64,000 bases of DNA, from assembly GCA_002269645.1 (NCBI GenBank), contig NIVC01003805.1, forward strand, positions 1 to 64,000, written 5' to 3'. Source of the stretch: Macrostomum lignano. Its lineage: Eukaryota. Position 1 is the first letter of the stretch, and each line of letters opens with the position of its first letter. Shown here one piece after another: positions 18,996 through 48,529 of the stretch. The notes beneath the pieces are model-generated. The model was not told the DNA's origin, made no database searches, and saw only the letters and a list, made by a program, of their open reading frames with translations. The position numbers were made by a program, and so were the translations under genes.

Positions 18996-19386
18996 TATAA
19001 TTTTTCATTCTCAACTAACTCCATGTATGAAATGAAATCTTGTTAATCTTAATCGTTAAACTGTCTTGGTCTTTAGACTCTGTTATTCACTCAAAGGCTC
19101 GTAGAGAAAATTACTACATCTAGGTTTAAGCTCGCCGTATTAGTTCTAGTGTAAGATCTAAACACTGTTCTAAGTTTGCCGTGCCACATAATACGTATTA
19201 AGCATTGGATAGAAACTTTAGTATTGCACAAATTAAGAACACGGTATTATAATCGCATTGAAGTAACACTGAAAGCGATTAATATTTATTTTCACATACA
19301 TTCGCACATGCTCAATGCAACGGGCTTGCATTCTCTGTAACGGCTGTAACGTTATTAGTTATTAGGCGGGCGCGTAAACACAATGC

Positions 19387-20267: not shown

Positions 20268-20814
20268 AACTCAAACAAAATTTAAGAAGTTAAGCTATAT
20301 TGATATTGCTATACAATAGAGATTGCGCTTTTTTAGAGTGTATCCTCTCGGATACAGCTCCCTTGCCGTCTAAGCTTATATCGAAAGTGAAGTTCTTTGT
20401 TTAGGATTGGCTATATTTACCGTCTTTATTCTTCACAACAGAGTGGGTCATCACGGCCAGCAACCCAACCGATATCGAACGGAGCGTGCGGTTGACTGAT
20501 TCTGTAGGAATGAGCGATCACCCCCATCTTCTTTATCTCTTGTTTCAACTGCCTTCTTCGTTTTAATCCCACTAAATTTTGTATATACAACAGCTGACAC
20601 AGTTCCCCTAGTGGCATTTTCAGCCTTGGCACCAACTGTTTCAGTCTTGACTGCATTTATCATCCCCCTTTCCATTAGTAGACCATTGATATTTACAAGA
20701 TTTAGAACGGTTATGTATTCAGTTGAGCTTTTCGCTCTCGCGTAATAACTTTTATAGCTTCCTTCCTCACCAATGAGTGGACTCCGAGTAAGAGATTCAA
20801 TGCTATGGAAATCA

Positions 20815-23286: not shown

Positions 23287-26200
23287 TTAGTTCAACCGCC
23301 AGTGGCCGTAGGGTAGAGAGGCGAGCGCGCCCAGCCAAGCACGTTTCGTGTCGAAAGAGCTTAGGGCTAGCTTGCGATGCTCGAGCAAAAAGACAACTTG
23401 TTTTTGCGAACTGAAGCGTCGCTGCTGAACGTAGTAGAGGCTTCTCTCGTTAACAGTTCTTACATACTCAGTATGCTTAATCTGTCGGGCAACCGTCTTC
23501 GTCACCCCCTTGCAGCGCGACAGTTGTTGCACAACTTCATTGGCCCTCAAAAAAGAGTAGTTCTTGGGCCGCAGAAACGCCAGCTCGATAGCCAGCTGCC
23601 CGCCGAATTCATCCTTCCACGCCATCAGCCGACCCTTGTGTCTGTCAGTGTAGAGAGGATGGTTCTTCGGGTAGTTGCTGGTGTCCAAAAGGCCTTGCTG
23701 CACAAAGTCCTTAAAAATAGTGTCGTACGGGGTTTCTCCCGACTTGCGCATCACCAGGGCCATCATCAGACTGTCGGTATCGCCAGCGAGGACGCGCGCG
23801 CACTCCAGAGAGCTGTGCGCCTGAACGTGACTGTAATAAAAGTCATAGACAATTGTCTTAGCAATATCGAGAATTGCGGCGCCAATGATGATCGGCTTGT
23901 TTAGCGTAACTTTTCTTGGAGCGAGATTAACTCCCGAGAGATTTTCAGAGTAGATTACAACATCTTGGAAGCGTTCCATACTGACCAGCGTCTCCAGCTT
24001 CTCTGGGTCGGAGCACATTCGAAAGTTCATTCGGTCGCGCACGCGCTGAAGAAACTTCCCGAAGAGCGAATTGTTGAGTAACTTAAAAAATCTTTTTCGA
24101 AATCCCCCGTGGCCGCTTTTCGCCTCTCAATGTTGCGCTCGATGTAAGAGCGCAAGATCGAGCGTTCGGTGAAGACAAGCACTCGGCGAATTCGTGGCAC
24201 GCGCAGTCCCAACTCCAGATAGAGGCGCAGAGCTCTGTAGTGCACCACATAGTCTTTTTTGTGCACCAGCGAAGCGATTAGCTTTTTCGTAGGGCTTTTG
24301 AATAGGCTGACCTCCTCGTATGAGGTTGCGTTAGCGCTGCGATTCGGAATCATCTGCCGCTGTAGTAGTAGCCAGTCTTGTCGTTGAGTTCTTGTCAGCC
24401 AGCTCTCAGTCACAGTTTCGTGACCTAAAGCCAAGGGCAAATCAGCAGTGGAGTCGTGCAGAAAATTTGGATAGTAGAGATCCACCGTGAACAGGGCGCC
24501 CCGGTCTGCCGAACAGAAATTACAAATCCAGTCCAGCAGCTTGCTCCTCACTGACGGATCCTCGAGTTCATCGGCGGACAGTCCATTGTCGCACGGAACG
24601 GACCGGATTTCTTGCAAAGTCATCCACTTGAAATCAGCACAAGGCATGGGATGAACCATGCATGTTGAATAGAGTGAATTTTCATTCAGATAAACAAGAA
24701 AAGTGTTTGCCGGAGCGTTTTTCCGCAACTGCGCAAACTCCGGTTCTTTCTCGTCAAGCTGGCAGCGGAAAGGTTCTACGAGCGGATTATTTGCAGTCGT
24801 CAGGTGCCGTGTACCAAAACTGAAGCCGCCACGAACCGAACGTTCGATTTCGCGGTACATGTCCGCATCAGTGACTAACTAAATAGGCTCCTGAAGAGTT
24901 AGTAGGCAGCTGGCGAGGCTGTACATTGGCGCACCCAAATAGTGGGCCGCGTCAATGCTGTATTCCTCCAGGCCGGTTTTACGGAAAGCCTCGAACACAT
25001 CCGCCAGAAGCAGCACGTCCAAAGACAGATATGCTGTTGTGTAGTCCCGCAGGCTGCGGCAACCGAATTCTTGCCAGCTTTTTTCGGCCCGGGCGTAGTC
25101 CTCGAGCGAGCAGGGCTCCTCCCTCAGGTGGTCAAAAAACGCCTCTCTGGGTGGGAGACGCGTAACTGAATCTATTTTCTCAAAAGAATCCGCAAATGAG
25201 TACGGATAGACTCCTTTTTGCAACAGAGTCGTTTCGCTCGGACCGGGATAGAACTTTAGAAGCTCCCTTGTACAGATGAGTTGATCTGGTTGAAGGCGCC
25301 CTGCCAGGCTCGCCAGGCTTGACGGTAAATAGGCAAATGAGTCTTTGAAACAAATTTCAAACCACGTCTCGTCAATCCCATCCGTGCTGGTGCTGCCTCA
25401 CTGCAGTCGAAACTTAATGGAAAATGTTTTAAACCGCTCACGGTTTTCCGGCAAGACATTCAACCGAATGTCCTTGCTGGTGCCTGAGAAAGTCTCGTAG
25501 ATCTCTCGAATGATAAATTTCGAATCGAAATTTTTCAGGTTATGCATAAAAACTGTTATTTTTCGGCGTTGTAAACTTAGTTTTTGATTGCAAGAGCAAC
25601 ATAAAACAGCACGAGGACGGCCTGTCAAATGGCAGTGATCCAAAACAGCTTGATCTTCTTCTTCTCCGGGTCCGAACTCCCGCAAACACAACTGGCAATT
25701 TGTCGCTGCCTGCAGCACAAGTCTTCGTGCGGGAAGAAACTTTCTCATCAGTGGTTTGTGGAGTTCTAGCCGTCCATAGTGCCTGATTTCCGAAGCTAGT
25801 TGGCGTAATTTTAGAAGAAACTGGCTCACGCAATTGAGCCCGGCCGAGCTCTGACTAGAATACAGCACCTCACACGGCTTTCCAGCGCAATAGGAAGGCA
25901 GCTTGCTTATGAAGTCTTGCGGCTGGGTAACCAATCTGTAGCCCAGGCAGAGTGGTACGAGTACTTCTCGCACAATACCGCTGCCAAGTTTGGGAACCGG
26001 GTGACCGGCTGCAGCCGCCTGTTCCGGACTCATTGCAATCGTTTCTAGATCTGAATAAATAACAAATAAAGCAGGTAGTCGAGTCTCATCGGCTGTGAAG
26101 CGCACAAAAGCCTCCTCTTTAGCTGGCATTTCTTCACGCGGAACAAAGCGGATCTCGCGAAACTGACCCTCCGGTTCAGACTGCCATACACAGCCCCTTG

Positions 26201-27437
26201 GTTGAGCTGCAGGCTCGGTTGGAGGCACGGACGTGCCAGTACAGCAGTGCTCGTTCAAGATGAAGTCCCAGGACACAGTGTGATTAAATGGCGCTAAACA
26301 GTTGGGACAGAAACGCCGTCGCCGCGTGTTAGAACTTAGCAGGCTTTGCAAATTCTTGATAGGCACATAGTGCCCAAACTTGAAGCTTGAATAAGGTGGT
26401 ATGAACAGGCAATTTGCCGTGTAGATAGCTTCTGGTGTTTTTTTCGAAAAAAACAAGCTAGCAGATTTGCTTTTGTGATCCCAGACAAACATGCGTAAGC
26501 CAAGAGTGGGATTTTTTCTCAGAAAATTGTTGTAGCTGTGTGCATTGTGCCGTTTAGGACCGGATGGATTTCGACCGAAATCGAAAACTTGCAACCATCG
26601 CTTGTAGCTGGCTCGTCTAGCCGGTCGGGCCACATCTTTTTGAAAGACGCTTGCTACTACAGCATAGCAAAAACAATCCTGCTGGTTCGCATTGTTGGGT
26701 TTTAGAAGTAGCACAGATCCAGCTTTTCTCGCCAGTGACAGCGGAATTTTGAAAGGTGTGGCCGCCGCCGCCGCGGGTGCTCCAGCTCCTGCACCGCGCT
26801 GTACAGACGCTCTCGCACGAGAGCGTCTGTACAGGGCGAGTAAAAAATCAACCTGTTCCACCGCCTCGAGATGCCAATTGCTGCCTTGTTTTTGAAAATG
26901 TTCCAGTCGAGTGACAAGATCGCCAACAGCGCGCAAAAACCACTGGTTAAAGGCGTCGGGCGAAAGAAGAGCTCCAGCAGCAGCAGCAGACTCTTCGTCA
27001 ATTGTTATCGTGAAGATATTGGTATTGAAATAAACTGAAATCTCGTGTTGTTGCAGCGGTGGCTGGTCGGCATCACTAGCAGCAGCAGCTGCTGGCATCA
27101 GACGACTTAGCTTACACTTTAAATGAATGCAAGTTCGCATTAGTAGATCTGGCTGCAGTAACATACTGAAAAGTCTGTAGATCGGCTGTTGAAGTGAAGC
27201 GAGCACCTCAGAGATCCCGTTGTTGTTGTCGTTGCCAGTGCCGTCAGCAGTGGGAATAAATTTTAGAAAATTAGCTCTTCCATGCAGCGCTGATTCTTCC
27301 AGAGCCGCATTCCAGCCACTAGGCGGATCGCTAATCAACGATTCCAGAGGGTGAAAACAAGCACCGTGCGAATGCGCATGCAGTGCTGCCTGGGTTCCGA
27401 ATCGTTTGCCGCAAACGCGGCACTGAATCCGTGGCAT
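23287..27437 (-). pseudogene. Protein-primed family B DNA polymerase (Maverick/adintovirus pPolB), in several broken frames
   Basis: N-terminal C2H2 finger (CRVC..HAHSH); endonuclease VII-like VLDHCHLTG..AVLCCSCN; exonuclease HNLKNFD and FKDSF; KGVYPY; Y...DVLLLADVFEAFR; RGG; motif A YLNENSLY (D>N); motif B KLLNNSLFGK; motif C GDTDS; C-terminal CKGV..K.ALSSFDTKR..PYGH. Confidence 0.95.
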
Positions 27438-27708
27438 TTGCCGTCGACGAGCTGTAATTTAAGTATTACATGAGTTAATTAGAAGCAGGAAACTTTCTTT
27501 CTACTAATACAAGTAGTAAAAAATTAACTTGAACGCCGATTTGGTTTCATTATTTGACAATAATGAAATGATGGTTGCAAATTTTTTTTTCTTTCAGAGT
27601 AGTCGACTCAGTATGCACAAATTAAATATTCAAGAATTAAGCTTTGATTTCACATCACTGCCTCGATAAAACCGCCACTAGGCGGTGCAAGGCTCGCTGG
27701 TGACGCGA

Positions 27709-28564
27709 TGATGTGTTCCTTATTACCCGACTTTTGGAAATCAAAGAACACTCACTTCTAGCTCAATAGCTAGGCAACCCAGTAAGTCAACAGAAGGTAT
27801 TCGATTACATTGAGTCCTTTGGAGATCTCTCGGAGTAGCTCTCGATTGTTTTCAGTTGCTCTCGTATAGTCACTTCTGACTTTCGTTTGTAGATCGGGTC
27901 CGATTCTTCTTTCTTCTTCAAATAGTTCCGGCCGGATTCTGTCGCTCGGACCAATGGGAAGCTTCCGAATTAACAATGGGATCCCTGCGCCAAACTGCGG
28001 TCTAAATTAAGCCTCCTTCCTCTAGCAGTGCCTCTATGCACTCTAGGTATAGCTCCGGAAACCACTGATAGTCTTCTAAGATCTATCAGGGGCAGTCCTT
28101 CTTGAGACTGCAACCAATGGAGTCTAAACAGACTCAAGAGTCTCAACAGACTCAAATAGACTCAAGTCTCAATAGACTTGAGCGAGACGTCTCTAACACA
28201 ACAGGCGCAAATAAGGAAGGCTCACCGCAACAACTTGACCGAGTCTCGATTGACTTGGTATATCAGGAAGTCCTCCTAAGGCTTCCTCTTCGGAGCGCTC
28301 CTCTTCCGTGGGGAGAATGACTCCGGTACCGCTTCAGATCGCTTGTATTTATAGGCAACTTTTTGTTCCAAAATAGCATCATTACAATTCTCGTGTTGCG
28401 CTAAAAGGGGAAAATGGCTCATGGCGTATTATTCTGGTAACATCTTTTTCTGGTAGCGTGATTCATTCAAAGCTTAGGCGCACATGCGTGTACTTACCTA
28501 CTTATAGTAGTATTATACGATTATCTTCTTTTTTCTGTTTTTGCGGGAGGCAGAACACTCTACA
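27709..28564 (-). mobile_element. Solo LTR, family L, copy L6
   Basis: TG...CA ends; TSD GCGA at 27705-27708 and 28565-28568. Cuts off the last ~15 codons of the kinase gene. Confidence 0.93.
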
Positions 28565-29240
28565 GCGAGCCTTGCACCAGGTCGCGCACCAGCCGGCTCA
28601 GATCTTCGACTGTTGATGATTCTGTAACCCTCAGTTGAACCACAAACCCGTAGCTTGGGAATGTGGCTTGCTGCGCCGCAGCCAGCCCTTGAAGATAGGC
28701 CAGGTCGATGTTGGCTTCTTCAGGCCGATTTCGTTGGCGAATGCGCTGCAGTGCCAGCTCCGGGTCGATTTCAAGGTACACCAGAGTGCAATCCTCTCGA
28801 GGTGTAACTGTCTTTGTCTTCTTTTCTAAGACCTGCAGCTGATTAACGAGAATTGCTTGCTGGGTACCATTCAAACGCCCTTGATGTTTTAGATGCGTTA
28901 AAAATGCATAGCAGCTGCCCAGGTGTCGGTCTGCCACAATAAACCGATGCGTGCCTTTTGCAGCGATTTTGCGGAGCTTCATGTCGCGTCTCACCATCTC
29001 GTGCGACACATGGACTTGAAATTCAAAAGCGGACAAGTCACCATCGTAAAACTGCTGCAGCAGATTCTGCAGATTCTGCTTTCGGTAGTATTCCACCGGC
29101 TCCCGAGCAAACTCGTACACTCCACTCCAGCATTCCAGCCGAGCCATCAGAGCCAGATTGCGGACAAGGGAAGGCTTCCCCGCCCCAATTAGACCTTCGA
29201 TCACGTAAGTTCGAGTCTGAGCACGGATTTGAGCGGCCAT
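28560..29240 (-). CDS. Deoxynucleoside kinase (dNK/dCK/TK2-like), C-terminus truncated by L6
   Basis: VIEGLIGAGK(P) P-loop, REPVEYY, FQ, ADRH, VYLEIDPE.ALQRIRQRNRPEE..IDL.YL. Removing L6 extends the frame with RHQRALHRLVAVLSRQ* to 27655. Confidence 0.88.
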   Translation of the reverse strand: MAAQIRAQTRTYVIEGLIGAGKPSLVRNLALMARLECWSGVYEFAREPVEYYRKQNLQNLLQQFYDGDLSAFEFQVHVSHEMVRRDMKLRKIAAKGTHRFIVADRHLGSCYAFLTHLKHQGRLNGTQQAILVNQLQVLEKKTKTVTPREDCTLVYLEIDPELALQRIRQRNRPEEANIDLAYLQGLAAAQQATFPSYGFVVQLRVTESSTVEDLSRLVRDLVQGSL

Positions 29241-29256
29241 TTGCTGAAATGAATAA

Positions 29257-29910
29257 TTAAATGAATGCTTGGGGCAAATGTTGGAAAACCTTCAACACTT
29301 GCTTCAGTTCCTCGAAATTTTGAGGACCTCAGACTATAAATTTCCGACTAAAGAACAGGTTCAGGAACAGCCTCGGGTTGCACTGAAGCCTGCAGGAGAT
29401 TGCCATAGGGAAATTTTCCTTATCCATGCTTAAACGATAGCCGCTCTCCAACTTCAGTGTAGTGGTATCCGAAAACAGGGACTCCAGGAGGGGAGTGCGG
29501 ACAGATGAGTCTAGGCCTACCGCATAAGTACTTGTCTGCACACACACAGACTCATAGTCTAATCCACCGCTGCATAGCTCGTTTATGAAGCACAGGAACC
29601 TTACTGCTTGGATTTTAGAATCGGCACCAAAAATTGTTACTTTCCCATTGGGATATAGCTGAACAGAACAAACACAAAAGCGGGTTTTAAGCATCGAAGG
29701 TCGCCCACGATAGAGTTTCGCCTCTCGCTGGGCAGAAATTAGCTTAGACTTTAACAGATCCAGCTGCCCGCCTGGTGGAGTGACTAATCGAGCCCCCACT
29801 ACATGTTGCAGCTGTCTCTGGAAGAGACAAGGAACAAGAAAAACACATTTCTTGATTTCTGTAAAACAATGATATGTTACACGTTTATTTGACTTGCATT
29901 TGAACTTCAA
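29257..29910 (-). pseudogene. TATA-binding-protein-like gene; premature TGA at 29329-29331
   Basis: Two TBP-type repeats: LQHVV..LDL..Y..P.M..SVQLYPNGKVTIFGADS, and VQT..L.LESL..ENFP..RL..PR..LNLFFSRKFIV*GPQNFEELKQVL, compared with TBP LIFxSGKxVxTGAK. The frame continues past the stop to TAA at 29257. Confidence 0.72.
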
Positions 29911-29914
29911 CTCA

Positions 29915-30038
29915 AGGACTACTTAACAACACAGGACGGTACACTTGCAAATATTGGCAGAATTCTAACATGCCGCTTTGAATGTATCTGTCTTTGGATA
30001 TTTTGCAAGTGTAACGTCCTGTGTTGTTAAGTAGTCCT
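29915..30038. repeat. ~40-bp inverted repeat (hairpin or tiny MITE)
   Basis: AGGACTACTTAACAACACAGGACGGTACACTTGCAAATAT (29915-29954) pairs with 29998-30038. CTTCAA occurs on both outer flanks. Confidence 0.75.
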
Positions 30039-30519: not shown

Positions 30520-33500
30520 GTCAGCCAGATATCATCAGTCTGCTGGCTGACCGTCTTTGTCAACGGCTGTTGGTGGATGTGGTTTTCTTGAGTCAGCGTC
30601 CGGGTGAGTTGAGGTAGAAATATCTCAACCGGGAGTTGATCAGGTGATGGTTTCAACTTGGAGGCGTGCGTGACCATTGGTGGAGCATTCAGCTTGTTGA
30701 TGTCCTGTATTAGAGCGTTCTGCGGTGATACCCACTTAAGGAGACGGAACGGTCCTCGATAAGGGTTAGAAAACTTTGAGGCTTTTTGTCTGGAGATCTC
30801 TAGGTAGCAGCGAGAACCAGGTTGTAGTCGGTAAGTCGTTTTGTGGAGTCTCCTCATTATGTCGTTGGGCTCGCTCCTCTGCAGTAGCGTGGAGGTAATG
30901 GAGCGCGACATCTCGAGCCAGAGTAATGCTGGAGCAAATGGTTTCCAATGGTTTTATGTTTTTGGAGTAAACAGAGATCTGGTGATCAAGGATTCGCGTG
31001 CTCGGAGCTTGGTGATTCGCGCATCACAGTGTGGCTGCAGTGTTGAGGGCGAGCGTCACTGCCGGTAGGTGCTCTATCCATTTGTCTGGCTGGTCGTGCA
31101 CGAACGTGGTGAGTGCCTGCTTCAGTGTTCGGTGCGCTCTTTCGACGAAGTTGCTTGACGGCTGATAGTAGGAGGTATAGATTAGTTTAATTCCGAGGGC
31201 TGCCATATAGTCTCTGAATTCCGTAGAGATGAACTGTGGTCCGTTGTCTAGGATGATGTTAGCAGGTATGCCAGCGAGTGCGAAGACATGGCGAAATAGG
31301 TGTTCACACACCGTTGACGATGTTGTGTCAGCTAGTGGGATTGTGAAGAGAAATTTGCTAACTCCGCATTGTGCCGTCAAGATGTACTTGTAGACGTCTC
31401 GCTGATGGTGTGCAGATGGTATCGGACCGACCAGGTCGATGGCTAGGTGTGAGAAGACGTTAGCGAACTTAACTGCTCTGAGTTCAGGGTGGACTTTTCG
31501 ACCAGGTTTCGCTCGATGGCAGATTTCACATTTCTTGACGTAGTCCATGGTGTCATTGTAACAGTTCGGCCAGTAGTAGTATCGAGAGAGCCGGAACCAG
31601 GTTTTTTCAAAACCGAGGTGGCCGCCAAACGGTGATCTGTGACTCTCATTTAGTAGGGCCTGCTGATATTCGGTTGGGATTACTAGTCGCAGGTTGGAAT
31701 TGCCCTTTGCTGACTCATAGTAGAGTGTTTCGTTCGCGTAATGGTAATTGTCAATGTGTTTCCGTACATATCTCAGGTCTCTCTTTGGTAAGGTTTGCGA
31801 CTGGTCCTCACCATCTCCGCTCAATAGAAAAATTATTGTGGCATATAGCAGTGATTGTTTGACGGCTTCCCGAAGTTTTTGAAACGTGGGGATCGGATGC
31901 AGCAGTTGTACCTCCGGAATTCGCGATAGGCAATCGGCAACGGTATTCGCCTCTCCGGTAATGTACTTGAGTGTAAACTGATAATCCTGTAGGTATAGAA
32001 TCCATTTTTGTAATCGCCGGGACAGTGGTTGTTTGTCAGCGAAAAGCGATTGCAGCGGCTGGTGATCAGAGTAGATGGTGAACGGCTGGTAAGAGGCATA
32101 CAAGAAGACATGGAGTTTCTTGATCGCCCAATAGATCGCATAGGCTTCTCGTTCGATTGCCGAGTATCGTTGTTCAGTGGCCGATAGTGTCTTCGAGATG
32201 TAGGCCACAGGTTGTTGGTGTCCTTCGGAGTCTACTTGGGAGAGTACAGCGCCGATAGCCGTATCCGAGGCGTCAGTGTGGAGGACATACGGCTTGTAAG
32301 GGTCCGGGTGGACTAGTCGGATGTCGGTGGTGAGCATATTTTTCGAAGTAGATCGAATGCTGACTGCTGTTCCTTGTTCCAGATTATCTTTTTCGTCTTG
32401 GATGCGTTTCGCAGGGCGTTGAGCAGTGGTGCGACTATTGTGGAGTATCCCTTGATGTGCGTTCGATAGAAGTTCGCCATTCCTAGAAAAGATTGTAGTT
32501 GTTTCACTGTCGTTGGGATCGGAAATTTGTTGATTTTCTCAACCAGGGATGGTGCTGGTCTGATTCCGTCTTCAGAGACTTGAAAACCAAGATATTGAAC
32601 TTCCGGTTTCGCAAAGACACATTTTCGAAGTGAAATTCAAAGTCCATGTTGTCTCAGTTTGTGTAGGAAGTGTTCGAGCTCAACCATCATGCCGTTAAAG
32701 TCTCCAGAGATTAGCAGTATGTCATCCAGATATGCGATTAGGTTTGGTGAGTCCGCAGTTAGTAGCGAGACGAGACGACACATGATGCTTGGGCTTGATT
32801 TGAGACCTTGCGGAAGTCTATTGAATTGCCAAAGAAGTCCGTTTGGCGCAATGAAGGCTGTGTACTTTGAGCTCTGTGGATCCAGTCGAACTTGATAGAA
32901 AGCGTCGGCAAGGTCACAGAGAGAGAGAACAGTTTTGCGCTTCTCAGCCGGTGTAGTAGGTCAGGTATTTTCGGAGGTCGTATGCTTGGCGTGCTAATGA
33001 TCTTGTTCAATCTGCGGAAGTCGGCAACGAGGCGGAGTTGTCGTCGGCCTTGTTCATCGAGTGTTTTCTTTTCGACAAGTAGACATGGGCTGGAGTATTC
33101 GGATTCACTCGGGCTGAGGATGCCTTTCCGGACGAAGTTGTTTATTAGCTCGTCAAAGCGCTCCTGTAGGCCATGTGCGATTGGGAATGGCCGTGACGTG
33201 ATTGGGTCCGAATGCGGGTGGACACTAATTTTGGCTGTGTATTGTGTCGTGCAGCCCATATCGGTTGGCAGGAGGGCCAGTGTGTCACGAAATCGGGATA
33301 GAACTTCAACCACTTGTTTCCGTTGGTCCGGTGATAAGTGTTGATTCTGCTTATCTAGTTGTTTTCTGATAAGGTTTTCGTCGCTTTTGTCAAATCAGGT
33401 GTGACATCCAAGGCGTTGATTTCTGTTGTGGCTGGCGCTGAGGCTAGCGTATAGTCTGCTGGGTCTGATAGTGCGCCGAGATGAGTTCGGGCATATAGCG

Positions 33501-36500
33501 TTACGGGTTGAAGTGTCGGGTTTGAAATCTGAAGCAGTATTGAGCGTCCGGTTTTGTCAGTCTGGCATAATGATGCTGCTAGTAGTAGCTTGTAGCGTTG
33601 CATCGTATGGTCCTTTGGTATAAATAGGACTGGCTGTAGCGGTGTGCCAGGTGTGGATAGTTCGGCTGACACCCACGTTGTTGTCTGTGCTGGGATGTGG
33701 GTGGCTTTCGGAAGTTGGACGTTGACTGTGTTCGCTGGAACAGTCATCGTACTGAGCATCGGAAATGTCGTACCATCGATTAGGGCTTCCGATTTGTTAT
33801 AGTCGATCGTTAGTGGTATATTGAGCGTCTTGAAGGTCTCTACTCCGAGGATGAGATCATATTCTTTGGACATGTTGTCCAGAACGAAGGCAGACATTTT
33901 GTGTTCCTTTGAGCCAATCAGTATGCGGAAGCTGGCTTCTTTCTTAATGTGGATCAGCTGTCCGCCTGCACATTGCACGTGAAGTGAGTGTGGTGTGATC
34001 TTGGCGTTCAGTTTCTGTGCAAAAGTCGGTGAGATGCAACTAATTGAGGCGCCGCTGTCGATGAGAGCCGTGCATTTGTGTCTTGTCGCTGGAGGCATAG
34101 TGCACCATAGTGTTATCAACGTGCGCGTGGTGAGATGTTTTAGGACGGTGTTGTATGCGATCGGCCATGGAGGAACCGGTGGTTTAGGCGCTGGTAGTGG
34201 TTTCCTCGTTGTCGTAGAAGGTGTTGGTGTTGGTTCGGTCTGCTGTGCTGTCGAGGTTATTTCGATTGGCGGTGCTGACGGGGCGGCCGGCGGAGCCCGT
34301 CGTGGCGGTGATGAGTTTAATAGTACCATTGGTATTTGGTTTGGAGCTCGAGTGGGTGAGGATGCATGGTGCCGTCTATTCCTTGGGCTATCTGTTGTTC
34401 GGAGGACCATCAGACGGTGCGTACGTCCGTATCGTACCGTGGTCGCGACGCAGAATCGACCAATATTGCAGATGAAGATTAGTAGCGCGGCATATACAAT
34501 GACCGCGGAGCTGAACAGAAAACGTTCCATGTGGTTATCGCGGAATCGTTCCCAATTAAAGATGGTGGTGCTCCAGAGATTCTTAAATGCTTGTGTAGCG
34601 TCCAGTCTGAAGCTTGAGGCGTCCGCCAGCAGTTCTTGGCGGGTTTTGTTATTGTTCAGCTTAAAGACAGTAACTAGGAAGTCTCTTGTTTGCATGAATT
34701 TTCCCATCATGTCTGTTACGGTAACCGGACTTCGCAGAGTGCTGTAGTTGACATCGCCAATGGGTGTGAAAATGCTCCGTCTCAGGTCGCTATAAAGTGA
34801 TTGTAGAAGGTACGCTTCGTCGGTGACCTGATGTGAGTCTAGTTCGCGAATGTCGCTGAAATTGGTCGTTGCTTTGAAGATAGAGGTATCTTTCGGTAGA
34901 TAGTATCCATCTTGATATTCGCACGGTATTAGTGGTTTGGCGGTTGAGACGATGAGCGTGGTGGTATCCAGATAAGCTAGTACGCTCCTGTTTTGTAGTT
35001 GAAATTTCATAGGTGGTCGCGTATAACATCTATTGGACTTGTACTCCGGTTGGACGAATGTGAAGTCGTAAAGTGGTTTGCACTGATGTACGAAAAGGTG
35101 ACCAGCGATCGACTGAGCGTATAAGAAGCGGTCGTTGAAGAGTTGTCGTGCAGCCAGTGTCGGATTGGTGTAGTACAGTGTGCGACTGTATCTCAGGTTG
35201 AGGGCGTACATTTTGCATTGTGTCTTAGTAAGTTGCGTGTGTACTGTCTTGAGGTCTTGGTGTAATTTCATCTCGAGGGCTTGTAGGCGGCTGGAAAGTA
35301 ATTCTGCTGAGGCCAAGTTTGTAGATAGTTGAGGTGCTGATTGGTTGTCGGCGGGCGTTTCACTTGAGCGTCGAATACGTACTTTGTCTAACGTCGGCGG
35401 TGCGTCTCGTTGTAAATATGGTATTGCCAGTGGATCATATTGATATTCTTCGGTTTGTGGTGTTGTGGCGTCCGTTGGCGGATCGATTGACATTGTGTGG
35501 GTTCTTCGGCTTGTCAATGGAGTTAGAGCAGTTTCCGTTAATCTTGGAGGTTCTGATGTCGTCACTGTCGATGTTTGCGGTTGCGTCGTGGTTGTGGAGG
35601 CCACCAATTGTGTCGTTGGTGTAGGACTGTCCGTGATTGGTTTCGTCGTGGTCGTCTCTTGCGTTGTTGGATCAGTTTTCGTCGTCGTTTGGTGCGTAGT
35701 CGTTCGGGTCATGTCAGTCGTCGATTTTACGACTGTCGTTGTAGGACTTGTTGTAGGGTTGGTTGATGTCTTCAGCGCATCTGTTGTTGTTCGTGTGGTC
35801 GGCGTCGATTTCAGCGTGGTTGTGCTGGTGGCTGTCGTGGTGGTACTCGTCCTTGGATTTGTTAATGTTGTCGATGTCGTCGGTGTCGTTGATGTTGTCG
35901 GTGTCGTCGTCGTTGTCGATGTTGTCGATGTTGTCGGAGTTGGGGAAGTTGTCGGAGTTGGGGAAGTTGTCGAAGTTGTCGCAGTTGTCGAAGTTGTCGC
36001 AGTTGTCGAAGTTGTCGCAGTTGTCGAAGTTGTCGCAGTTGTCGAAGTTGTCGCAGTTGTCGAAGTTGTCGCAGTTGTCGAAGTTGCCATGGCGATTTGT
36101 TTGTAGGGTAGTGAACGGCTAGGACGGGATTTCGTTTCTGCCGTATTGGGAGTGGCGTCCGATGACTGGTTTGTCTGAGCAGTCGGAGTTGGAGGTGTTG
36201 GCCTTATCGCATTAAGGAAGTGTTGTTCTTGTTCAAGTACTTCGACGTAGAGTCCTTGCTCGGAAAGGTAAAGCTTTTTGGTGCCAGCGGAGCAGCTAAG
36301 AGTGTGCTGAGGCGGTGTAGCTGCAAATGTTAAAGCTAGCGTTTGGTCGTCGTTGATGAAAAAGTTGGAGTGCTGTAGTCCATTCAGAGCGCGGAACGGT
36401 ATTAATGAACAATCTGATTGTGGTGGTACATTTCAGGACAACGTTAGTTTTCGCTCGCCTGCTGCGTGGAGATTGGCGACGGCCGGTGGAGTTAGTTGTG

Positions 36501-37923
36501 TCCAGGCCTCTGTCAGAAGCTGATGTGGTAGATTAAAACGCATCATCTGTTCCACAGTTGTCGGGATGGTGCAGCCTTTTGTTGAATAGACACAATGTTT
36601 GATCGGAAACGCCAGTGATTCCATCGGATCTGTTGGACTAGCAAAAGCGGCGATGCTAGTAATCAAGGTGGATGCCATTATCGTTTGAGTACGAGAGGCG
36701 AGGCAGTTGTCCAGCAAAGTTGTATGTATGGCTGACCGGAATAGTTGTTGGCCAGAAACTGTGGCTACTATTTGTAGTTGGCCATCAGGTGAATTTCTGG
36801 ACACGACCCATTGTAGACAAGCGAGTGGCGTTGTCGGTTTCGGTTTCACAGTTATGTGAGCTTCACGAAAAGTGCGTAGGTGTGAGCCAAGACGATTGCA
36901 GTTGATAGTTATCTCTTCCCGATAACACATGTTCATCATTATCCGGGTCTTTGCTAGGTTAGAGGTGTAGAGTCGTAGACGCATTGGGATAGCTCTTGTT
37001 TCTTGCGGGTTGAAGGACTCGCACCGTATTTCGGTAGGGATCTTGAAAATTCGAACTGGGCCTTTGAGCGGGCAGACCATTGGTGTGTCGACGAATGTTG
37101 GGTGATCGAGTGATGCCGTTCCGTTACGTGTTCCGATCAGAGTGGTGATCAGTAAACCAAGGAGTAATACGCCTAGTTGACCGTGAGTGTTTAGATGAGT
37201 CGTCTTGCGGGTCGGTTGTCTCAGAGAACGCTGAGTTGTGGGCGCGCAGTCCGGGCAGTCGGGAGTCCAGGGGACGACCTGGATGCCCATGACTTCGGCC
37301 TTGGTGCTCTGCTGTCGGCGCTTAAGGGCACGCAGGAGGTTGTACTGTGGTCCAGTCCCGGTGAAGTAGTATGGTCCACTACTTACTGGAGTAGACACAT
37401 TGACTTCCGGCTTTGATTCCATGGCCTTGTCGGCACCCGTCGGCTGCGGTTGTTCAGTACTGGAGGGTGCGCTTGTCGTTACGACCTGTAGGGCGTTCAG
37501 CGAGGCTGCTGGGGCTCGCGGTGACGGCGATCGTGAGTGGCTTCCGTTTGATCTGTTTGGTCCATAGGAATTTCTGTTGGAGAAGTGGACCTGTCGTCTG
37601 TCTGAGTGTTGATTGGCATCCATGATGATTTCCGGTACAAACAGATGGGCTGGTGGTGAATAACCAGAGGGCCAAGCAGTTGGTGAAGTAGTTACGTCGG
37701 GAGTAGAGCCAGAAAGTCGTCGGGTACTCGAGGTTGTGTTGTCAAGTGCTTGGTCTGTGTCAGCGGCTGGCGCTGAGTTTGGTTGCAATTCGCTCAATTT
37801 AGCTGTAGGGGATTGTGATGCTGCTCGTCGACCAGAGCGTAATGTGAGCGAGTGTTTATCTGGACTATCCCTTTGGTCATCATTTTGTAATATCGGTATG
37901 ATATGTAATGAGAATTCTGACAT
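30520..37923 (-). mobile_element. Ty3/gypsy retroelement with a gB-like envelope fused upstream of PR-RT-RH-IN; mildly degraded; no flanking LTR pair recognised
   Basis: ORFs 36433-37923 and 33355-36090 share one frame, separated by a single TGA. Protease ALIDSGAS (~34055); RT RLVADFRRLN, RLPQGLKSSP, YLDD (32721-32732); RNase H TDAS..GAVL, EREAYA, DHQPL; integrase HHCC, IDLVGP, DNGPQF, VERAHRTLK, then GPF module. Domain order is gypsy-type. Confidence 0.9.
34465..37176 (-). CDS. Class III (herpesvirus gB-like) fusion glycoprotein domain within the polyprotein
   Basis: Hydrophobic LGVLLLGLLITTLI (37135-37176), Cys-rich ectodomain, RIRR furin-type site (~35370), RLQ-x21-C-x16-NP-x26-C..CYTRP..F..PC, and C-terminal TM FLFSSAVIVYAALLIFIC. 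Confidence 0.78.
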
Positions 37924-38658
37924 GTATGCACACGAGTGACTACTGCCTAAGTAGTATCAGACGATAATCAAACAGAATATATGTGTATCAGCGTATTGAT
38001 CAAAATTGTAGGCTGTAGAGCCTGTAGACTTCTTTGTAAACGAATACGAACATCTATTGCAAAATAGGCTATACGACAGGGCCACAGACTACAGTGTGGG
38101 CTTGTTAGGAAACGGTACGGCGGATGCCACAGGTGCGTTTGTGGGCTTATTGCGCGAGTTCGGTGCACGAACTGTAATGTGTGATGAGTTGCAGGCCAGG
38201 AACGAATGTCGCGGCAGGGCGACCGTCGCAGCTTGTGTCACCTTTTAACCGGAATCGCCGATTTGCGATCTCCGACCAGCTCTTCGGGCACAGCTTGTGT
38301 GGCCGGGTTAACAACTGAGTGCCACTACCGAATTAGTGGCCGCCACGACTGGGTGGCTTGACGTGGGCCCACGTTTTTACTCTCTATGCTACTAGTAGCC
38401 CTCTGTGTCAAGCGTTGTTGAGAAAGAGAGAAGAAAAAAGGGACAGAACGAAGAAAAGGCGGTCTATATATTTTGTGTTTTTTGTTTGTCAATTTTCTGT
38501 AAGACCGCTAATAAGAGAGTGAGATGTAGTTCGTTGTACTTATATTTAGAAAGTTATTTGGAGTAGAGCATTGAAGGTGAAGTATTGTAGTATGTCATTG
38601 TCAGATAAATAGCATAGCGATATACGAGCTAGTGGTGTTAGTTAAGGGACGTTCGTAT

Positions 38659-39243
38659 TCAGAAGTGTTTAAGGACGTCAACGCGAGACTGGTATGAGCC
38701 GACGAGCAGGTGGCGGTAGGCGGGTGGAAGTTGTTTCACTTGGTTGCGGAGCTGTTCGTGGAGGGGGAAACCCCTAGTAACCCTCCATGTATGGTGGAAG
38801 GCCATTTGGGCGAGGTGGGCAAGGCTGGGTGGGGAGAAGGGCGGCTTGGCGAGTGAGCCGATGTCGGCGGCGACGCAGGAGCGGCGAGCTTCGTTGTCCG
38901 TAGCCAGGTGTTCTGGGCGTGTGCCCGCAACCACCAACTCCAAGTGGAGGAGGAGGGGTGCGAGCTCCTGGTACATCAAGACGACCTTCCAGACGGGGGT
39001 GCGTAGACGCGGCAACCTCGTCAGGAAGCGGGCCACCAGGTAGAGTGCCGTTGGCTTGTCATTCGAGCCTTTCAGGATGTAGATTATCGTATTCTGAATG
39101 GCGCGCTCAGATCTTCGGATGGTGTTTGCCGGGAGTAGGGCATACCATGACATCAGGCCATCTAAGACCCGTAGGTCGCCCTTGTTCAACCGCGCCAGTT
39201 CCTCCTGGTCGTCCCATTCGAACACGGTGTCTCCACAGGCCAA
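38659..39243 (-). CDS. Hypothetical protein with a C-terminal SOCS/BC-box-like motif
   Basis: PPSLAHLAQMAF...QLPPAYRHLL at the C-terminus. The frame extends ~25 codons upstream without an ATG. Paralog at 49574-49790. Confidence 0.55.
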   Translation of the reverse strand: MACGDTVFEWDDQEELARLNKGDLRVLDGLMSWYALLPANTIRRSERAIQNTIIYILKGSNDKPTALYLVARFLTRLPRLRTPVWKVVLMYQELAPLLLHLELVVAGTRPEHLATDNEARRSCVAADIGSLAKPPFSPPSLAHLAQMAFHHTWRVTRGFPLHEQLRNQVKQLPPAYRHLLVGSYQSRVDVLKHF

Positions 39244-40689
39244 GTCGATGAGTCGGGCAACGGCTGGGTAATCGTAGCAAAGATGGTAATAGGGGAAGGG
39301 TGGTTGAAGATAGGGCTGGACAAACTAAAATCGTGAGGATCAACCTCCGGGATTAAGCGAAAGGTGCAGAGGGGATTGGAATTGGGCCTAACGAAAGGTG
39401 GTGGAGATGGTCAGGTAGGTTGGAGATAGGTAGCCATAGGGGTTCACGGTCTCGAAGCTGGGAACAAAAAGCGGCATAACTCGTCGGGGAATACATGTCG
39501 GTGGACGGCTCTAGAGAGTGGAAAATTAGGATATGAAACTAGTGGATGGCTGGTGTAGTAAGACTAGGAGCTTTGGAAGGGGAGCAATGAGGGGGGGACG
39601 GAAGATCGGTCTTTATTACGAGGCGCTGTGGGGGATGGGGAACCGCAGACATCCTGACTGAAGAGGCTAAGAAGTGGAATTTGTGATGATTCAACAGACG
39701 CTAGACACTGGGCAGAACCGGCAGTTGACTGCCACGGAGAGACCCCCAGCATAAACAGAGAATGGGGAGGAGGTAGGAGAGTGCCAGCATTTGGAGGCGA
39801 AATCCATCCTACTTCCCAAGGTCCATCGATGAGGGGGATGCCTGCCGGGTGGTAGCATGTTAGCTGGGTTTACTGGCGTGTGACTGGCGGCGGCGTTACG
39901 TTAATCGAATAGTTACAGGCGCGGAGCCTCTGTGTGCTGGAGCGGATCCAGGCTTATTGCGTGGGGGCTAGATCATCCCTGAAAGCAGAACAATACAAAG
40001 CATGGGGTCTGACCCATTGGGACGAATCCAGGTTGACTGACAAAGGGCTGTGTTGGCCGTTTAAACAATAGATAATACCGTTAGTAGAACGTGCCTGCGT
40101 AAGATGCTAAGTGGAGTGGCGCAACGAATTCGGCAATTGGGCTGGAGGCATATGTTCTTGCAGGTAGGAAGTGGGGTGCTTGTCGGTGTCTACAGGATAG
40201 AGGGAACGAAAGTAATCGATTGGGTGCCTAATTAGGAAGAGGGGGGAGGGACCCTAGAATTGGATGGGCAGATAGGCTGAAAGGGGAGCGCGGGTAACAA
40301 AGCGCGGGGGGGCCAAGTGGGAAGCTCGATGCACGAATATCGAGCGATGTCTGAGGGGGCAGAGAGGCTGGGAAGGAATGTCCCGTGCCGATCTGTGTAC
40401 TTCAGCGAAAGCCACAAGTCAGTATTCGACGAATACAGACCAGACTGTACTGTTAAAGTAGACTTCTGGGGAAGGATCGATCGAAAGGGGATAGTCCAAA
40501 GGGCGAGAGCGGCCGTGGGACGAGAAAGGGCTGCACTGTCCAGGCATTCCAGAACTTCTAAATGTCAGCCGTAGCCCCCAAAAGGACGAGGTGGCTGATG
40601 CACTATCCAGCAACAAGTCTACAGCAAATGTCAGAGGAGTGCCTTTCGCCCAAGCGCAAATGTCAAGCCTGCAATTCAGTGCAATTCTT

Positions 40690-41610
40690 ATGAGATATCT
40701 CTCCTTCTTTGAGTCCTTCGTAGATCTCGTGTAGATCTCGATCTGAAGCTCAGGCCTGAATTCGACTCGACTTGTAGTCCTGGTCCGAGTTTCTTTTTCT
40801 TCTTTTGCCGGCCGGTATCTGTCGTTCGGACCAATAAGAAGCTTCCAAATTAACAATGGGTACCCTGCGCCAAACTGCGGTTTAATATAAGCCTACTCCT
40901 TCTAGCAGTGCCTCTATGCACTCTAGGTATAGCTCCGGTAATCACTGATAGTCTACCAAGATCTATCAGGGTAGTCCTTCTGGAGACTGCTGCCAATGGA
41001 ATCTCAATAGACTCAAGAGTCTCAACAGACTCAAACTAAACTCCAACGAGACGTCTCAAAACACAGGCGCAAATGAGTAAGGCTTACCGCAAGAACTCGA
41101 CGAGTCTTCTGTAGGAAGTCCTGTAGTGGCTTCCTCTTCGGAGCTCTTCTCCTTCCGGAGGAATTGTTGGCTCTGAGTCCGTTCCGGACCACTTGTATTT
41201 ATAGGCGTTCAGACCTCTCTCGAGGTCGTACATCACTGTCTTCGCAAATGTCAAAGGGTCACGATTCGGTGGCTGTCAAGCATGACAGGGTAGAAAGTTG
41301 CGCAACTAGTCTACTGTAAAAGCGCATGATTGGTTACCGTAGCTGGTAGACTTTGATTGGTTCATCCGGGTGCAACCCGAGTGCAAACCAAATGATGACT
41401 TGTAGGTGGGGTTTGAATTGACAGTTGTTGGTCGCACGTGATTGGGTGATTTCTAAAATTAGCATGCTCGAGATTTCTCTCTTTCTATTGGTTAATTCGA
41501 ATATACGTATGGTTCAGCGCATATCGTTATACATGCTCCTCAAATTACTACTATTTAAGTAGTACGTTAACAATTTTAAATAACTTTTCTGGGAGATATA
41601 ATACTCTACA
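40690..41610 (-). mobile_element. LTR family L, copy L7, U5 end missing
   Basis: Family motifs GTTCGGACCAAT, GGCTTACCGCAAG and CTTGTATTTATAGGC; CTCTACA end at 41610. Confidence 0.88.
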
Positions 41611-42482
41611 CATCTCGGGTGATGCCGCGAAAGACCTCTACCGGCTTTGTGGTCTGAAAAACGAGCGGCAGCAGCTCCCGGCATGTAGAACTGGGTCTCC
41701 AGGCCAGAGTTCGAAGTCCGTTTTCGTGTTTGTTCCACTTTTCTGCCCTGCCGAAGATAATTGCGGCATCCTTGCGTTCGAGGGCCTCCTTCGAGGCAAT
41801 CGCAGCTTCAGGGAAGAACGCCATCTCGGTCAGCCAGGTTGCTGTTCGTGGCGGCTGTGGGACTAGTGCCTTATATAAGCCTCAGCAAATGGCATGCAGC
41901 TGTAGCCCGGATGGGAAAAAACAACATTCCGCATGCTTTTACCAAAATGTCAAAGGGACAACCCGCGCCCAGATTTTTTCAAATTTTGCATGCAAGTAGC
42001 AAGACGATAATTTTTTCATTTTAATGGCGAATGACAGTTGGTCTTCTAAATCCTGTAAATAGCAATGGTCTACTAATGGAAAGGGGGATGATAAATGCAG
42101 TCAAGACTGAAACAGTTGGTGCCAAGGCTGAAAATGCCACTAGGGGAACTGTGTCAGCTGTTGTATATACAAAATTTAGTGGGATTAAAACGAAGAAGGC
42201 AGTTGTAACAAGGGATAAAGAAGATGGGGGTGATCGCTCATTCCTACAGAATCAGTCAACCGCACGCTCCGTTCGATATCGGTTGGGTTGCTGTCCGTGA
42301 TGACCCACTCTGTTGTGAAGAATAAAGACGGTAAATATAGCCAATCCTAAACAGAGAACTTCACTTTCGATATAAGCTTAGACGGCAAGGGAGCTGTATC
42401 CGAGAGGATACACTCTAAAAAGCGCAATCTCTATTGTATAGCAGTATCAATATAGCTTAACTTCTTAAATTTTGTTTGAGTT

Positions 42483-43345
42483 ATGAGCGAGAATCTAAAT
42501 CATTTCGGACGCGCTGCTGAAGCTGTTAACGACCCTAGACGGGGCCGTTCGCGTTCGCGAAATGGACACCATATAGATACTTTATATTTTAATAGTTCGT
42601 CGCAATTTCCGGAATTTGACGAGTTTCCGGATGCCGACTACTTAAATGAACTATGCCGGATCCCTGAAGAGGGTAAGTTTGGTACCTGCTTGGTTATGTT
42701 TTAATTTATCCTCATTGAAATAAACATCTAGTGTTGCGACTTTCCTCCGCAGATGCCATCAGTCCTGAACCGCAGGGTGATCATGGACGCTGGGCACCGT
42801 GGACGTGGGTGTCGAGTGCGTGGACGTGGGCGAGGGCCCTGTGGAATAATATATATGGCGCTGCGGGCGGAGACAGCGATGTTGAATCTAGCCTTCAAAG
42901 TGATTCTGGCGAGGATGTTCGACCGACCGCTGCGATGCTCGAGTCTTCCGTCCTGGGCGAGGGTGCCGTGGGCGGCGGAAGCGCTGTGCAGTCCGACTTG
43001 GTGAGCGAGCCTTCTAGACCAAGCGAGAGCGTCGCGGGGGGCGGCAGCCATCGTGAGATTGGCTCCGTCGAGGCTCGTGTTTGTCGACAGTCACGGGATG
43101 GACCTAGCCGCAGCGAAGGCGCTATGAGCGGCGACAATCCTCGCTGGTACCCATTTCTTAACCATCGTCACGCATCTCACGTCTACGCGCCCTCTTGATG
43201 GGCGCGGGCATGGACGGGTGCGTAGTAACGGCGAGAATTGGGTAATCATCGCCGAAGAGCCTTCGCTTTATGGTCCATTGCGCATACTGGTTAGAGAGAA
43301 TAGGCCTGGTCCGCCTATTCGACGGGCGACTTCTGACTCGGACTC
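42483..43345 (+). pseudogene. Orphan gene C, copy 2, frameshifted in exon 2
   Basis: Same exon 1, donor and acceptor as 19387-20267. Indels near 43160-43195 shorten the ORF. Confidence 0.6.
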
Positions 43346-43366
43346 GGGCCTCTGTGAATTTTAAGC

Positions 43367-46534: not shown

Positions 46535-46725
46535 AAAGTGGTAGGACGAGATTAGGCAAACGCGCTTGGGTAGGATATAAATTCATCTTCTAGTGGCTGG
46601 GACTTCCTATTGGTTTTGCTATGCAAAAACGGGCTATGCGTGTATCCCATTGAAATAGTGCTTGGAACTTCATATTACTTTGGCCATGGAAAAACGAGCT
46701 ATGGGCGTAAAAAACGCTTACTACT
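46535..46725 (+). repeat. Second Maverick TIR-end copy, abutting a broken gypsy gag
   Basis: Homologous to 18805-18995; ends CTTACTACT, with gag sequence immediately beyond. Confidence 0.55.
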
Positions 46726-48021
46726 GGTCTCTTCCATTTTGATCATGCCGATTCCATTTGCTTTTTCTTTCTCGTCCTTGTTGTCCTCGTTTGTCTTCTT
46801 CCTCTCGATCATGCTGATACCAAGCTCCGGGTCCGTAAAGTCCATCTCCAAGTCGTCGATTGTGAAGACGTGCTGTTCATGTTGCTCATTTTCCGGTGTG
46901 TACGTGATGGCATTTGCGTATCGTTGCATTGCTTGTGTCGGCTGTTTTGGTGTGTACTTGGCGTTGCGTGGCCTGTAGCCATCATTTCCGAAGCGCATCG
47001 TGCCTTGTTGTTGCCGATTTTGATATTGCTGCCATGGCTTTTGAGGTTTCCGACTGTTGAATGGTGGCCTTGGCTTGTCATATCTGGTCGAACGATGAGG
47101 ACAATTAATTTGATAATGGTCTTCTTGTCCGCAGTAGTATCATCTGGCTTGGGCGCGTTCATTTCTTATTTTCTGTTCGGCGATGGCGGCTATTTGATGT
47201 TTCATTAGCTTGTTTAGTTGTTGCGTCAACTTCTGCACTTCTGTGTTGCCTGTTGTCATTAATGGGGCACTGGCTTCTCATTGCATCCCGCACCGCAAAA
47301 GGTCTTCCTCGGTTTCGATGTTCTCGCCAAAAGTCTATCCCGAAGTGACGGCTGTGCATTGTTTATTACGTGCAGGATGAGGTTTTGTTCTCGATCCATC
47401 AATCGTTGTCGTTCTCTAGCGGCTAGTTCCGCTGCACCTAGGGGTGGTTGGTCCGCAGCTTGCAGCGTTGGCTGATGCAGTGCCTTAATTATTTGGCGGA
47501 TATCATCCACAAAGGCGAGGAAGGATTCTGTTGCCTGCATCCTTCTGTTATGTAACTTGTGCAACAGCACTGATCTGTTTGTGCCACAGCGATTGAAGTG
47601 CGCGCGCAGTTGAATGAATAATGCTGGATAATTTTGCTGTGTTTCCGCATCCAGGTTGCCATAAATTTCTCGTGCAGTACCTTGGAGAAGAGGTGGTAGC
47701 AGCTGTGCCAATTCTCTGGATTTTGCAGATTGTATTCCCTGCATACCAGGTCAAAATGGTCGACAAAGGTGTTAAAATCTTTCTCCATCGAGAAGGTACC
47801 CACTGTTTCTTTGATTTTCCTGTGCACCGTTGGGTTGCGCCGCGCCATGTTGTTGATGGGGTAGAAAGGTAGTTCGAGATCTGGATCGATTTGTAATGGA
47901 TCGTCCAGTGTGGTGTTTGCCTCGGAATAAACCTCGACTGTAACGAATTGTCTTGTGGTGTCGATTTGTTATTCGCTGGCCTCGAATGGAGTTGTGGCTT
48001 GCTGCCACTGGCTGTACTCAA
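46726..48021 (-). pseudogene. Ty3/gypsy gag of family L, frameshifted
   Basis: FNTFVDHFDLVCREYNL..LLPPLLQGTAREIY..LRAHF..LHNRRMQATESFLAFVDDIR is a capsid-like pattern. Lies downstream of L8 and its PBS. Confidence 0.75.
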
Positions 48022-48509
48022 ATGAACTTGTTCTGTTTGCTGGTTGGCTCAGCACTTATGCGGCGTCCCGCAAAGTGTATCTTCCACTTGCGTCGAAGTG
48101 TACTTGTCTTCTTGTTTTTTACGGACTTTTTTCTTCTTTGATTCTCTTTCTTTCGTCAATTAACTTTGTTCTCGACGAAGTATCAATTAATTTCGGTTTT
48201 GCTTTAGTTTGCGTCGACGATTCTTTACTTTCGGTTTGTTTTCAGTGTACCGACGAAGTTAATTTTTGGTTTTGTTTTAGATTTACACTTGCTCGAGTTC
48301 GTTAAAACAAAAATTAATACGCGTGCTTAAACTGTACTCAAAATTGACAGGTTCTCAAGCCTGTATACCAAAACTGTATTCGAGTTTCAAAACGTACAAA
48401 ACTCGAAAAGTGTTAACTCTAACACGTGTGCGCAAAATTAATGAAGTCGCTCTCTCGTCACTTTTACAATAGCTTGATCAGGGCTATTGCTCAAAATTTG
48501 AGTAGTGCC

Positions 48510-48529
48510 GAAAGGGCGAGTTCACCAAT
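48510..48529 (-). promoter_or_regulatory. Putative primer-binding site after 5' LTR L8
   Basis: Minus strand reads ...ACATCA|ATTGGTGAACTCGCCC, with TGG two bases after the LTR end. The cognate tRNA was not identified. Confidence 0.5.

Follow-up and report, generated by a model that had tools for sequence, protein, structure and literature searches.

The 64,000-nucleotide stretch of Macrostomum lignano contig NIVC01003805.1 analysed here (hereafter the window) carries a Ty3/gypsy-type element on its minus strand. This window copy is a dead, internally deleted copy of a long terminal repeat (LTR) retroelement of the GAG-ENV-POL kind, in which an envelope glycoprotein (Env) of the herpesvirus glycoprotein B (gB) type lies between gag and pol. 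Its intact relatives in the same genome carry all three genes in a single open reading frame (ORF). Considering the evidence as a whole, we regard it as very likely that the window holds a gag-deleted remnant of such an element and that the intact relatives express one membrane-threaded, protease-processed polyprotein, a mechanism that we infer from the features described below. The case is also a caution, as a 1-kb deletion made a known architecture look Gag-less.

A single reading frame for Gag, Env and Pol

The env-transmembrane-protease piece of the window copy had at least 88 matches in the contig set of this genome (G000, of which the C-numbers below are contigs and copies), at 28-100% identity. 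We named the families by their identity to this piece: about 88-98%, 63-68%, 55% and 29%. Among the 88 matches listed, 61 spanned the region from the second transmembrane segment (TM2) to the catalytic Asp of the protease in one frame, and 52 of these 61 did so without a stop. Therefore, the junction between Env and protease is not due to chance. Open frames of 2,460-2,866 amino acids (aa) hold 15 of the 88 matches listed.

Copies C247 and C1672 of the 63% family and C1639 and C2112 of the 29% family are single ORFs with the order CCHC-TM-TM-DSG-YxDD-H2C2. Pfam agreed for C2112 and for C247, apart from the knuckle of the latter, which was found by motif scan. The intact relatives are organised as Gag (capsid and CCHC knuckle), Env, protease (PR), reverse transcriptase (RT), RNase H (RH) and integrase (IN) in one ORF of 2,500-2,870 aa. 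The original prediction, made from the letters of the window, had placed a fusogen upstream of and in frame with PR-RT-RH-IN, which holds across the family in both the junction matches and the intact ORFs. It had also suggested that env sits between gag and pro, the order seen in the intact copies. Intact copies with capsid Gag fused to Pol and env downstream were expected to contradict it; capsid Gag and Pol do share an ORF, but env lies between them.

That the glycoprotein block is an unrelated chance insertion, nested between gag and pol, has a negligible probability in our judgement, even in a window that is a nest of mobile elements. The block keeps the same position and frame in families 29% to 98% alike and also in proteins from other sources, and no repeat boundaries surround env. 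Searching the genome with the junction, as the original prediction had proposed, showed neither a nested insertion nor a regular stop before the protease.

The LTR pairs of the relatives are 99.1-100% identical, and target site duplications of 4-5 bp were present in all four copies read. Paired LTRs, a primer binding site (PBS) and target site duplications occur in the 63% and 29% families. None of these remain in the window copy, and its own subfamily yielded no true pair of LTRs. Within that subfamily, copy C114 has a 603-aa frame that runs from Gag into the first transmembrane segment (TM1).

The N-terminal region of the intact ORFs has a predicted two-lobed retro-capsid fold, for which the top VIA rows were the dArc2, MOAP1, PEG10, RSV, Copia and MLV capsids (Z about 10). 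A profile of the Gag region matched nucleocapsid knuckles, dArc1 and Copia. The best PDB matches for the RT-RH part of C247 were to Ty3 RT (E 4e-58), ahead of caulimovirus and retrovirus RTs. The order PR-RT-RH-IN, this Ty3-closest RT, and the capsid and CCHC knuckle of relatives and sister copies are those of a Ty3/gypsy element. Ty3 (Metaviridae) likewise has this order and the two-lobed capsid fold; it lacks env and uses a gag-pol frameshift.

Loss of gag from the window copy

As the original prediction had stated, positions 37923-33355 (minus strand) form a single frame whose sole interruption is the TGA at 36433-36435, according to the window's ORF list and translation, in which we read this codon as X. 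The frame contains a hydrophobic segment near residue 250, followed by the ectodomain, TM2 (residues 1136-1154), a Pro-rich linker of about 135 aa and the protease with its DSG motif (residues 1289-1291), with no stop or shift between TM2 and DSG. The Pfam matches to protease, RT, RNase H and integrase follow the Ty3/gypsy order. Damage to pol goes beyond the one small frameshift noticed before: tblastn with an intact relative placed frame changes at about 33350, 32922, 32335 and 30835, and the ORF list gave in-frame stops at 32637-32639 and 31024-31026, or some four frameshifts and two stops in all. Similarity to the sister copy extends as far as 30530, and comparison with that copy found no 3' LTR beyond this end. 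The window copy also lacks the 5' LTR end and the PBS. Both are kept by a duplicate locus, C2285, which carries 1.15 kb more than the window copy at 40687; its PBS is of a TGG type, which we take to correspond to tRNA-Glu.

Compared with the sister copy C1884 (96-98% nucleotide identity), the window copy lacks about 1.0 kb at 37610-37613, and it is this stretch that holds the capsid and knuckle in C1884. A second gap of about 115 nt at 37842-37852 took the gag start region. A search of the genome for the junction found eight places, three of which have the gag-less junction (the window, C2285 and C4060); in the other five (C1884, C114, C45, C1272 and C255), about 1.0 kb lies between the junction halves. 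On either side of the three junction places, the flanks match at 95-99% identity for more than 10 kb, with C4060 reaching the contig end on one side. Therefore, they represent one insertion that was duplicated. According to PMC12801592, the species is a hidden allotetraploid whose assembly is redundant. C2285 and C4060 do not have the window's TGA, carry a stop of their own in the ectodomain insert and have lost PR-RT.

The absence of a capsid Gag thus stands for the window copy and not for the family, since capsid and CCHC knuckle are kept in sister copies and intact relatives. The proposal that Pol is loaded into particles without Gag fails on the intact copies, which carry both in the same ORF. 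The basic RRQVHF..SRSPSPR stretch, suggested to be a Gag C-terminal tail, was confirmed as such by blastn, as it follows the CCHC knuckle in C1884.

We consider it highly improbable that Env-Pol functions as a Gag-less element, with Pol as the tail of Env and Gag perhaps supplied in trans by another element, and for this assembly the reading is refuted. The window copy could be read in this way, as it lacks the capsid and its N-terminal remnant is still in frame with env; a related family also offers the mirror image, a Gag-only derivative that has LTRs. This derivative, C1356 (L078, G000:C1356:207460-214999), is a deletion derivative of the 63% family that has lost 5.7 kb, has LTR sequence at both ends and encodes a 932-aa ORF comprising gag, TM1 and the start of env. 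Yet the junction of the window copy belongs to one duplicated insertion and not to an amplified family, all three junction copies are broken in env or pol, and gag is kept in five sister copies. The features of the dead, internally deleted window copy are collected in Table 1.

Table 1. Features of the window copy and its leader, in window positions.
Feature	Position	Strand	Basis or remarks
5' leader remnant	37957..40687	-	Common to C255 (83% over 1.75 kb), partly to C114, C45 and C1272
Extra leader ORF, 221 codons stop to stop, upstream of gag	38659..39324	-	76% aa identity in C255; open in C2285 and C4060
Gag N-terminal remnant; its initial 25 or so codons derive from the leader, joined via the ~115-nt gap	37613..37923	-	blastn against sister C1884
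Junction left by the ~1.0-kb gag deletion, which took the capsid and the CCHC knuckle	37610..37613	-	Present in 3 of 8 matching places
Gag C-terminal tail (basic RRQVHF..SRSPSPR) and spacer	37177..37609	-	C1884 and C247 have it behind the CCHC knuckle
TM1, putative internal signal sequence, shortened in the window copy	37126..37176	-	Hydropathy and charge
Predicted gB-type class III fusogen ectodomain, broken by TGA 36433-36435	34519..37131	-	Profile, model and fold searches
Thr-rich mucin-like insert with 9-nt repeats, ending at furin-type RIRR (35379-35368)	35353..36171	-	pLDDT <50 at model residues 321-593
TM2, putative stop-transfer anchor	34462..34518	-	Hydropathy 2.36
Pro-rich, putatively cytoplasmic linker, in frame, variable in sequence	34081..34461	-	Hydropathy and motif comparison of 5 proteins
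Aspartic protease (DSG)	33829..34080	-	Pfam gag-asp_proteas, E 5.5e-07
Reverse transcriptase, broken by frameshifts and a stop	32340..33394	-	Pfam RVT_1, E 6e-16
RNase H	31981..32304	-	Pfam RT_RNaseH, E 8.5e-37
Integrase (H2C2, core and C-terminal part), broken by a stop and a frameshift	30530..31680	-	Pfam

The extra leader ORF had no Pfam match and was not found by tblastn in the examined stretches of the 63%, 55% and 29% families. The leader is about 3 kb long, and a partial copy of this ORF lies at 49544-49795 of the window.

A gB-like fusogen and a putative membrane-threaded polyprotein

Profile searches and structure prediction identify the window ectodomain as a gB-like class III fusogen. 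For the profile, we combined 43 sequences, namely the window protein as the first sequence, four relatives from the genome and 38 of 57 env homologues. Against the PDB, herpesvirus gB filled 47 of the 48 rows (best E 1.2e-21), and the match included the block of the central helix, NP and CYSRP. The spacing RLQ-x21-C-x16-NP-x26-C and the CYTRP motif, on which the original prediction had based its fusogen call, are present in the window translation when counted by hand, and the same block aligned to Epstein-Barr virus (EBV) gB in the profile search.

The structure check that had been proposed for this call was also positive. An AF2 monomer model of the ectodomain had a mean pLDDT of 66.7, with 470 of 871 residues at or above 70 and the insert disordered. 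Foldseek matched the model to gB of HSV, KSHV, VZV and CMV (best E 1.1e-11), and a viral fold search matched it to the G proteins of nyamiviruses, chuviruses and related viruses, with nyavirus G at the top (best E 6.9e-17). The TM-scores of these fold matches were low, at about 0.3, as expected because of the 270-residue insert and domain shifts. A single-sequence phmmer search of the window protein against the PDB returned nothing useful, and Pfam alone gave gB only at E 0.046, so that profile and fold searches were needed. Together, these searches found likeness to gB domains in sequence and fold, a long central helix and conserved Cys residues. The window ectodomain has 14 Cys and a Thr-rich, low-confidence insert, which is missing from the 29% family. 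A count of 12-14 Cys, the full ectodomain fold and the furin motif are kept across families.

We scored topology by hydropathy, charge and motifs on five proteins from this genome, with hand-set TM positions for two. All five showed a hydropathy peak at TM1, with a net charge of +3 to +5 before it and 0 to -2 after it, although TM1 of the window copy fell below the scan threshold. The net charge after TM2 was +2 to +3, a furin-type R-x-[KR]-R motif stood at the same place, and the linker from TM2 to the catalytic Asp measured 111-137 aa, again in all five. A protease-site-like motif, [VILAY][NH][ASTGV][ILV], was discarded as a marker, as it occurred in both luminal and cytosolic parts and does not discriminate.

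These features suggest how the intact relatives could be expressed. Unspliced RNA would be translated as one chain, with Gag made in the cytosol. The gB ectodomain would be threaded into the lumen of the endoplasmic reticulum by TM1, which would serve as an internal signal sequence and be followed by a signal peptidase cut. TM2 would stop the transfer, leaving PR-RT-RH-IN to be made as the cytoplasmic tail of Env. Furin would cut the ectodomain at R-x-[KR]-R, and the element's own protease would free capsid, nucleocapsid and the Pol domains. Gag, Env and Pol would meet on one membrane, where enveloped particles could bud. The window copy has since lost the core of gag, the LTRs and the pol frame and yields no such product.

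Several points weigh against the polyprotein reading. The predicted topology and cleavage sites rest on hydropathy, charge and motifs. The ectodomain shows no clear excess of N-glycosylation sequons, with 0.6-1.0 per 100 aa compared with 0.3-1.6 in the N-terminal part. Some extra control, such as splicing, early termination or Pol turnover, is probably needed because a 1:1:1 ratio of Gag, Env and Pol is hard to fit into a capsid; none was found. With a pLDDT of 68, the Gag model is moderate in quality; its Foldseek match to HIV CA had an E-value of only about 0.01, and a capsid Z of about 10 falls within the range for which the tool gives a warning on helical folds. Finally, the copies examined include no fully intact member of the window's own subfamily.

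Copia yields Gag from spliced or shortened RNAs, and single-ORF LTR elements often gain an excess of Gag by splicing or Pol turnover. The single ORF may accordingly be real while most Gag and Gag-Pol come from RNAs that skip env, in which case Pol would not be packaged as the tail of Env. This would solve the stoichiometry problem, but we regard it as unlikely. Even between families with only 29% identity in env, gag stays in frame with env and env with pro, a constraint that splicing by itself would not impose. For the 63% family, the gene models in the database cover the full length, at 2,852-2,859 aa. When contigs of 4 of the 24 runs listed, whose status as RNA is a guess, were compared with C247, those of two runs bridged env, TM2 and pol, and no GT-AG joint was found in the contigs of the four. 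The only skip, of 5,742 nt with 8 filler letters, was rejected as a splice, as it corresponds to the genomic deletion copy C1356, which appeared in the contigs of two runs at a depth like that of the full form.

The polyprotein might also be made as described with its Env serving intracellular budding or cell-to-cell passage into the germ line, and not free infectious particles, which we find somewhat doubtful. The Discussion of PMC13524379 notes that it is unknown how gB-type errantiviruses enter cells and that gB of herpesviruses depends on partner glycoproteins, and the element is known here from its sequence. The ectodomain fold, furin motif and 12-14 Cys are kept as in viral fusogens, which does not separate the two routes.

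Within the polyprotein reading, we tentatively put at somewhat below even the more specific possibility of a single membrane-threaded chain like that of togaviruses or flaviviruses, made without frameshift or readthrough. Gag would be anchored by the Env signal peptide, and Pol would enter particles as the cytoplasmic tail of Env, giving three Pol per Env trimer. In the structural polyproteins of alphaviruses and flaviviruses and in the Env leader peptide of foamy virus, capsid, internal signal and glycoprotein follow one another in one chain that is cut by signal peptidase. The likeness is an analogy of strategy only, as these viruses are unrelated and have a different fusogen class. If true, this would be a route of Pol packaging not known to have been shown for any retroelement, and several lineages would share it, among them those of flatworms, nematodes and further animals. 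No discussion of such a processing or packaging route was found in the main text of PMC13524379.

Published relatives and neighbouring elements

A protease motif followed env in the same protein in 17 of the 57 env homologues, a CCHC knuckle preceded it in 19, and both were present in 10, including two of this species. Pfam, run on 25 of the 57, found Ty3 capsid, gB, protease, RT, RH and IN in one 2,741-aa chain in P0030. Another homologue, P0035, is a protein of the nematode Panagrolaimus superbus. A search for homologues close to the query in length returned only two proteins, 98-99% identical to it, and database proteins that nearly match those of the genome's own families carry the label Macrostomum lignano. 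The RT was 28-37% identical to those of the Gag-Env-Pol proteins from other sources that were compared. Among the polyproteins from other sources, of which P0030, P0052 and P0024 stood out, some carry a pair of protease-like motifs downstream of env. In P0024, env is flanked by protease domains, and in P0011 a NADAR domain precedes it.

The order of Pol after Env, which the original prediction set against the usual placing of env after integrase, is already in print. Chary and Hayashi 2026 (PMC13524379) describe elements of Nematoda, Bryozoa and Platyhelminthes with a gB-type env in GAG-ENV-POL order, the ectodomain sometimes lying between two transmembrane segments. The window's clade shares with these errantiviruses the host phylum, the two flanking hydrophobic segments and the gene order, in which a Ty3/gypsy element carries a gB-type env between its gag and its pol. 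Supplementary file 1 of that paper, as consulted, has nine flatworm rows with one family for this species, Mlig_errantivirus_2, and the window's clade is not among the nine. The 29% family has the same LTR length (864), LTR spacing and PBS as Mlig_errantivirus_2. The window copy does not belong there: it is only about 40% (RT), about 28% (env) and 37-38% (pol) identical in aa sequence to the 29% family, and the LTRs of that family in the window are separate insertions. Its clade also differs in LTRs and PBS, in a Thr-rich env insert of about 270 aa and, in the window subfamily, in the extra 5' ORF. The window's clade is thus a new family of the published gB-type GAG-ENV-POL kind, and the gene order itself was already known.

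No mention of a single-ORF, polyprotein, frameshift or splicing layout was found in the main text of PMC13524379, whose figures may show the ORF layout. The consulted text of PMC12801592 yielded no mention of gag, glycoprotein or ORF. A literature search, with subscription journals mostly outside its coverage, found only PMC13524379 to treat this arrangement. For nematode elements that have ENV ahead of POL, that paper refers to Sacco et al. 2022 (J Gen Virol 103:1739). The intact relatives described here have a flatworm host, and the best viral fold match was nyavirus G. The nematode endogenous retroviruses (NERV) of Sacco and colleagues reportedly have one continuous gag-env-pro-pol ORF, the feature also seen in our intact relatives, and a Nyamiviridae-like glycoprotein.

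Beyond the one family in print, a second clade of single-ORF Gag-Env-Pol elements is present in this genome, recently active and with LTR pairs above 99% identity. As the host is a tractable laboratory flatworm, observation could show by what means a single ORF provides workable amounts of capsid, of a luminal fusogen and of cytosolic enzymes, and whether Env brings about the packaging of Pol.

LTRs of the 29% family and of its relatives, some whole and some partial, number more than ten in the window (5520-53344), and a 5' LTR with a gag remnant lies at 46723-49573. LTR-like repeats at 40685-41610 and 27709-28564 were considered as LTRs of the window copy and rejected, since they belong to the 29% family; the second is a solo LTR missing from both duplicate loci. 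A 555-bp repeat around C1884 was rejected as the subfamily LTR, as it is not common to the sister copies. The 29% family has two RING-finger ORFs between integrase and the 3' LTR (L051:8134-9540, C2112), the first matching Pfam zf-RING_2 at E 2e-04, and their remnants occur in the window at 9531-10586 and 7811-8041 (minus strand). The 55% family has a 325-codon ORF after integrase that had no Pfam match (L059:561-1535, C3269).

A 1.3-kb inverted repeat pair (19385-20707 and 42044-43366, 97.7% identical) brackets about 21 kb including the window copy. A degraded block at 23290-29922 (minus strand), presumably Polinton/adintovirus-like, contains DNA polymerase B-like pieces with endonuclease VII and a C2H2 finger, a deoxynucleoside kinase (Pfam E 3e-21) and, by eye, a TBP-like ORF. 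Its edge is marked by a 37-bp inverted repeat at 29915-30038, and ORFs judged by eye to be integrase-like (14503-15366) and capsid-like (17001-17885) lie nearby. At 59415-62854 (minus strand), a coiled-coil host gene, which we assume to resemble CFAP53, has introns filled with minisatellites.

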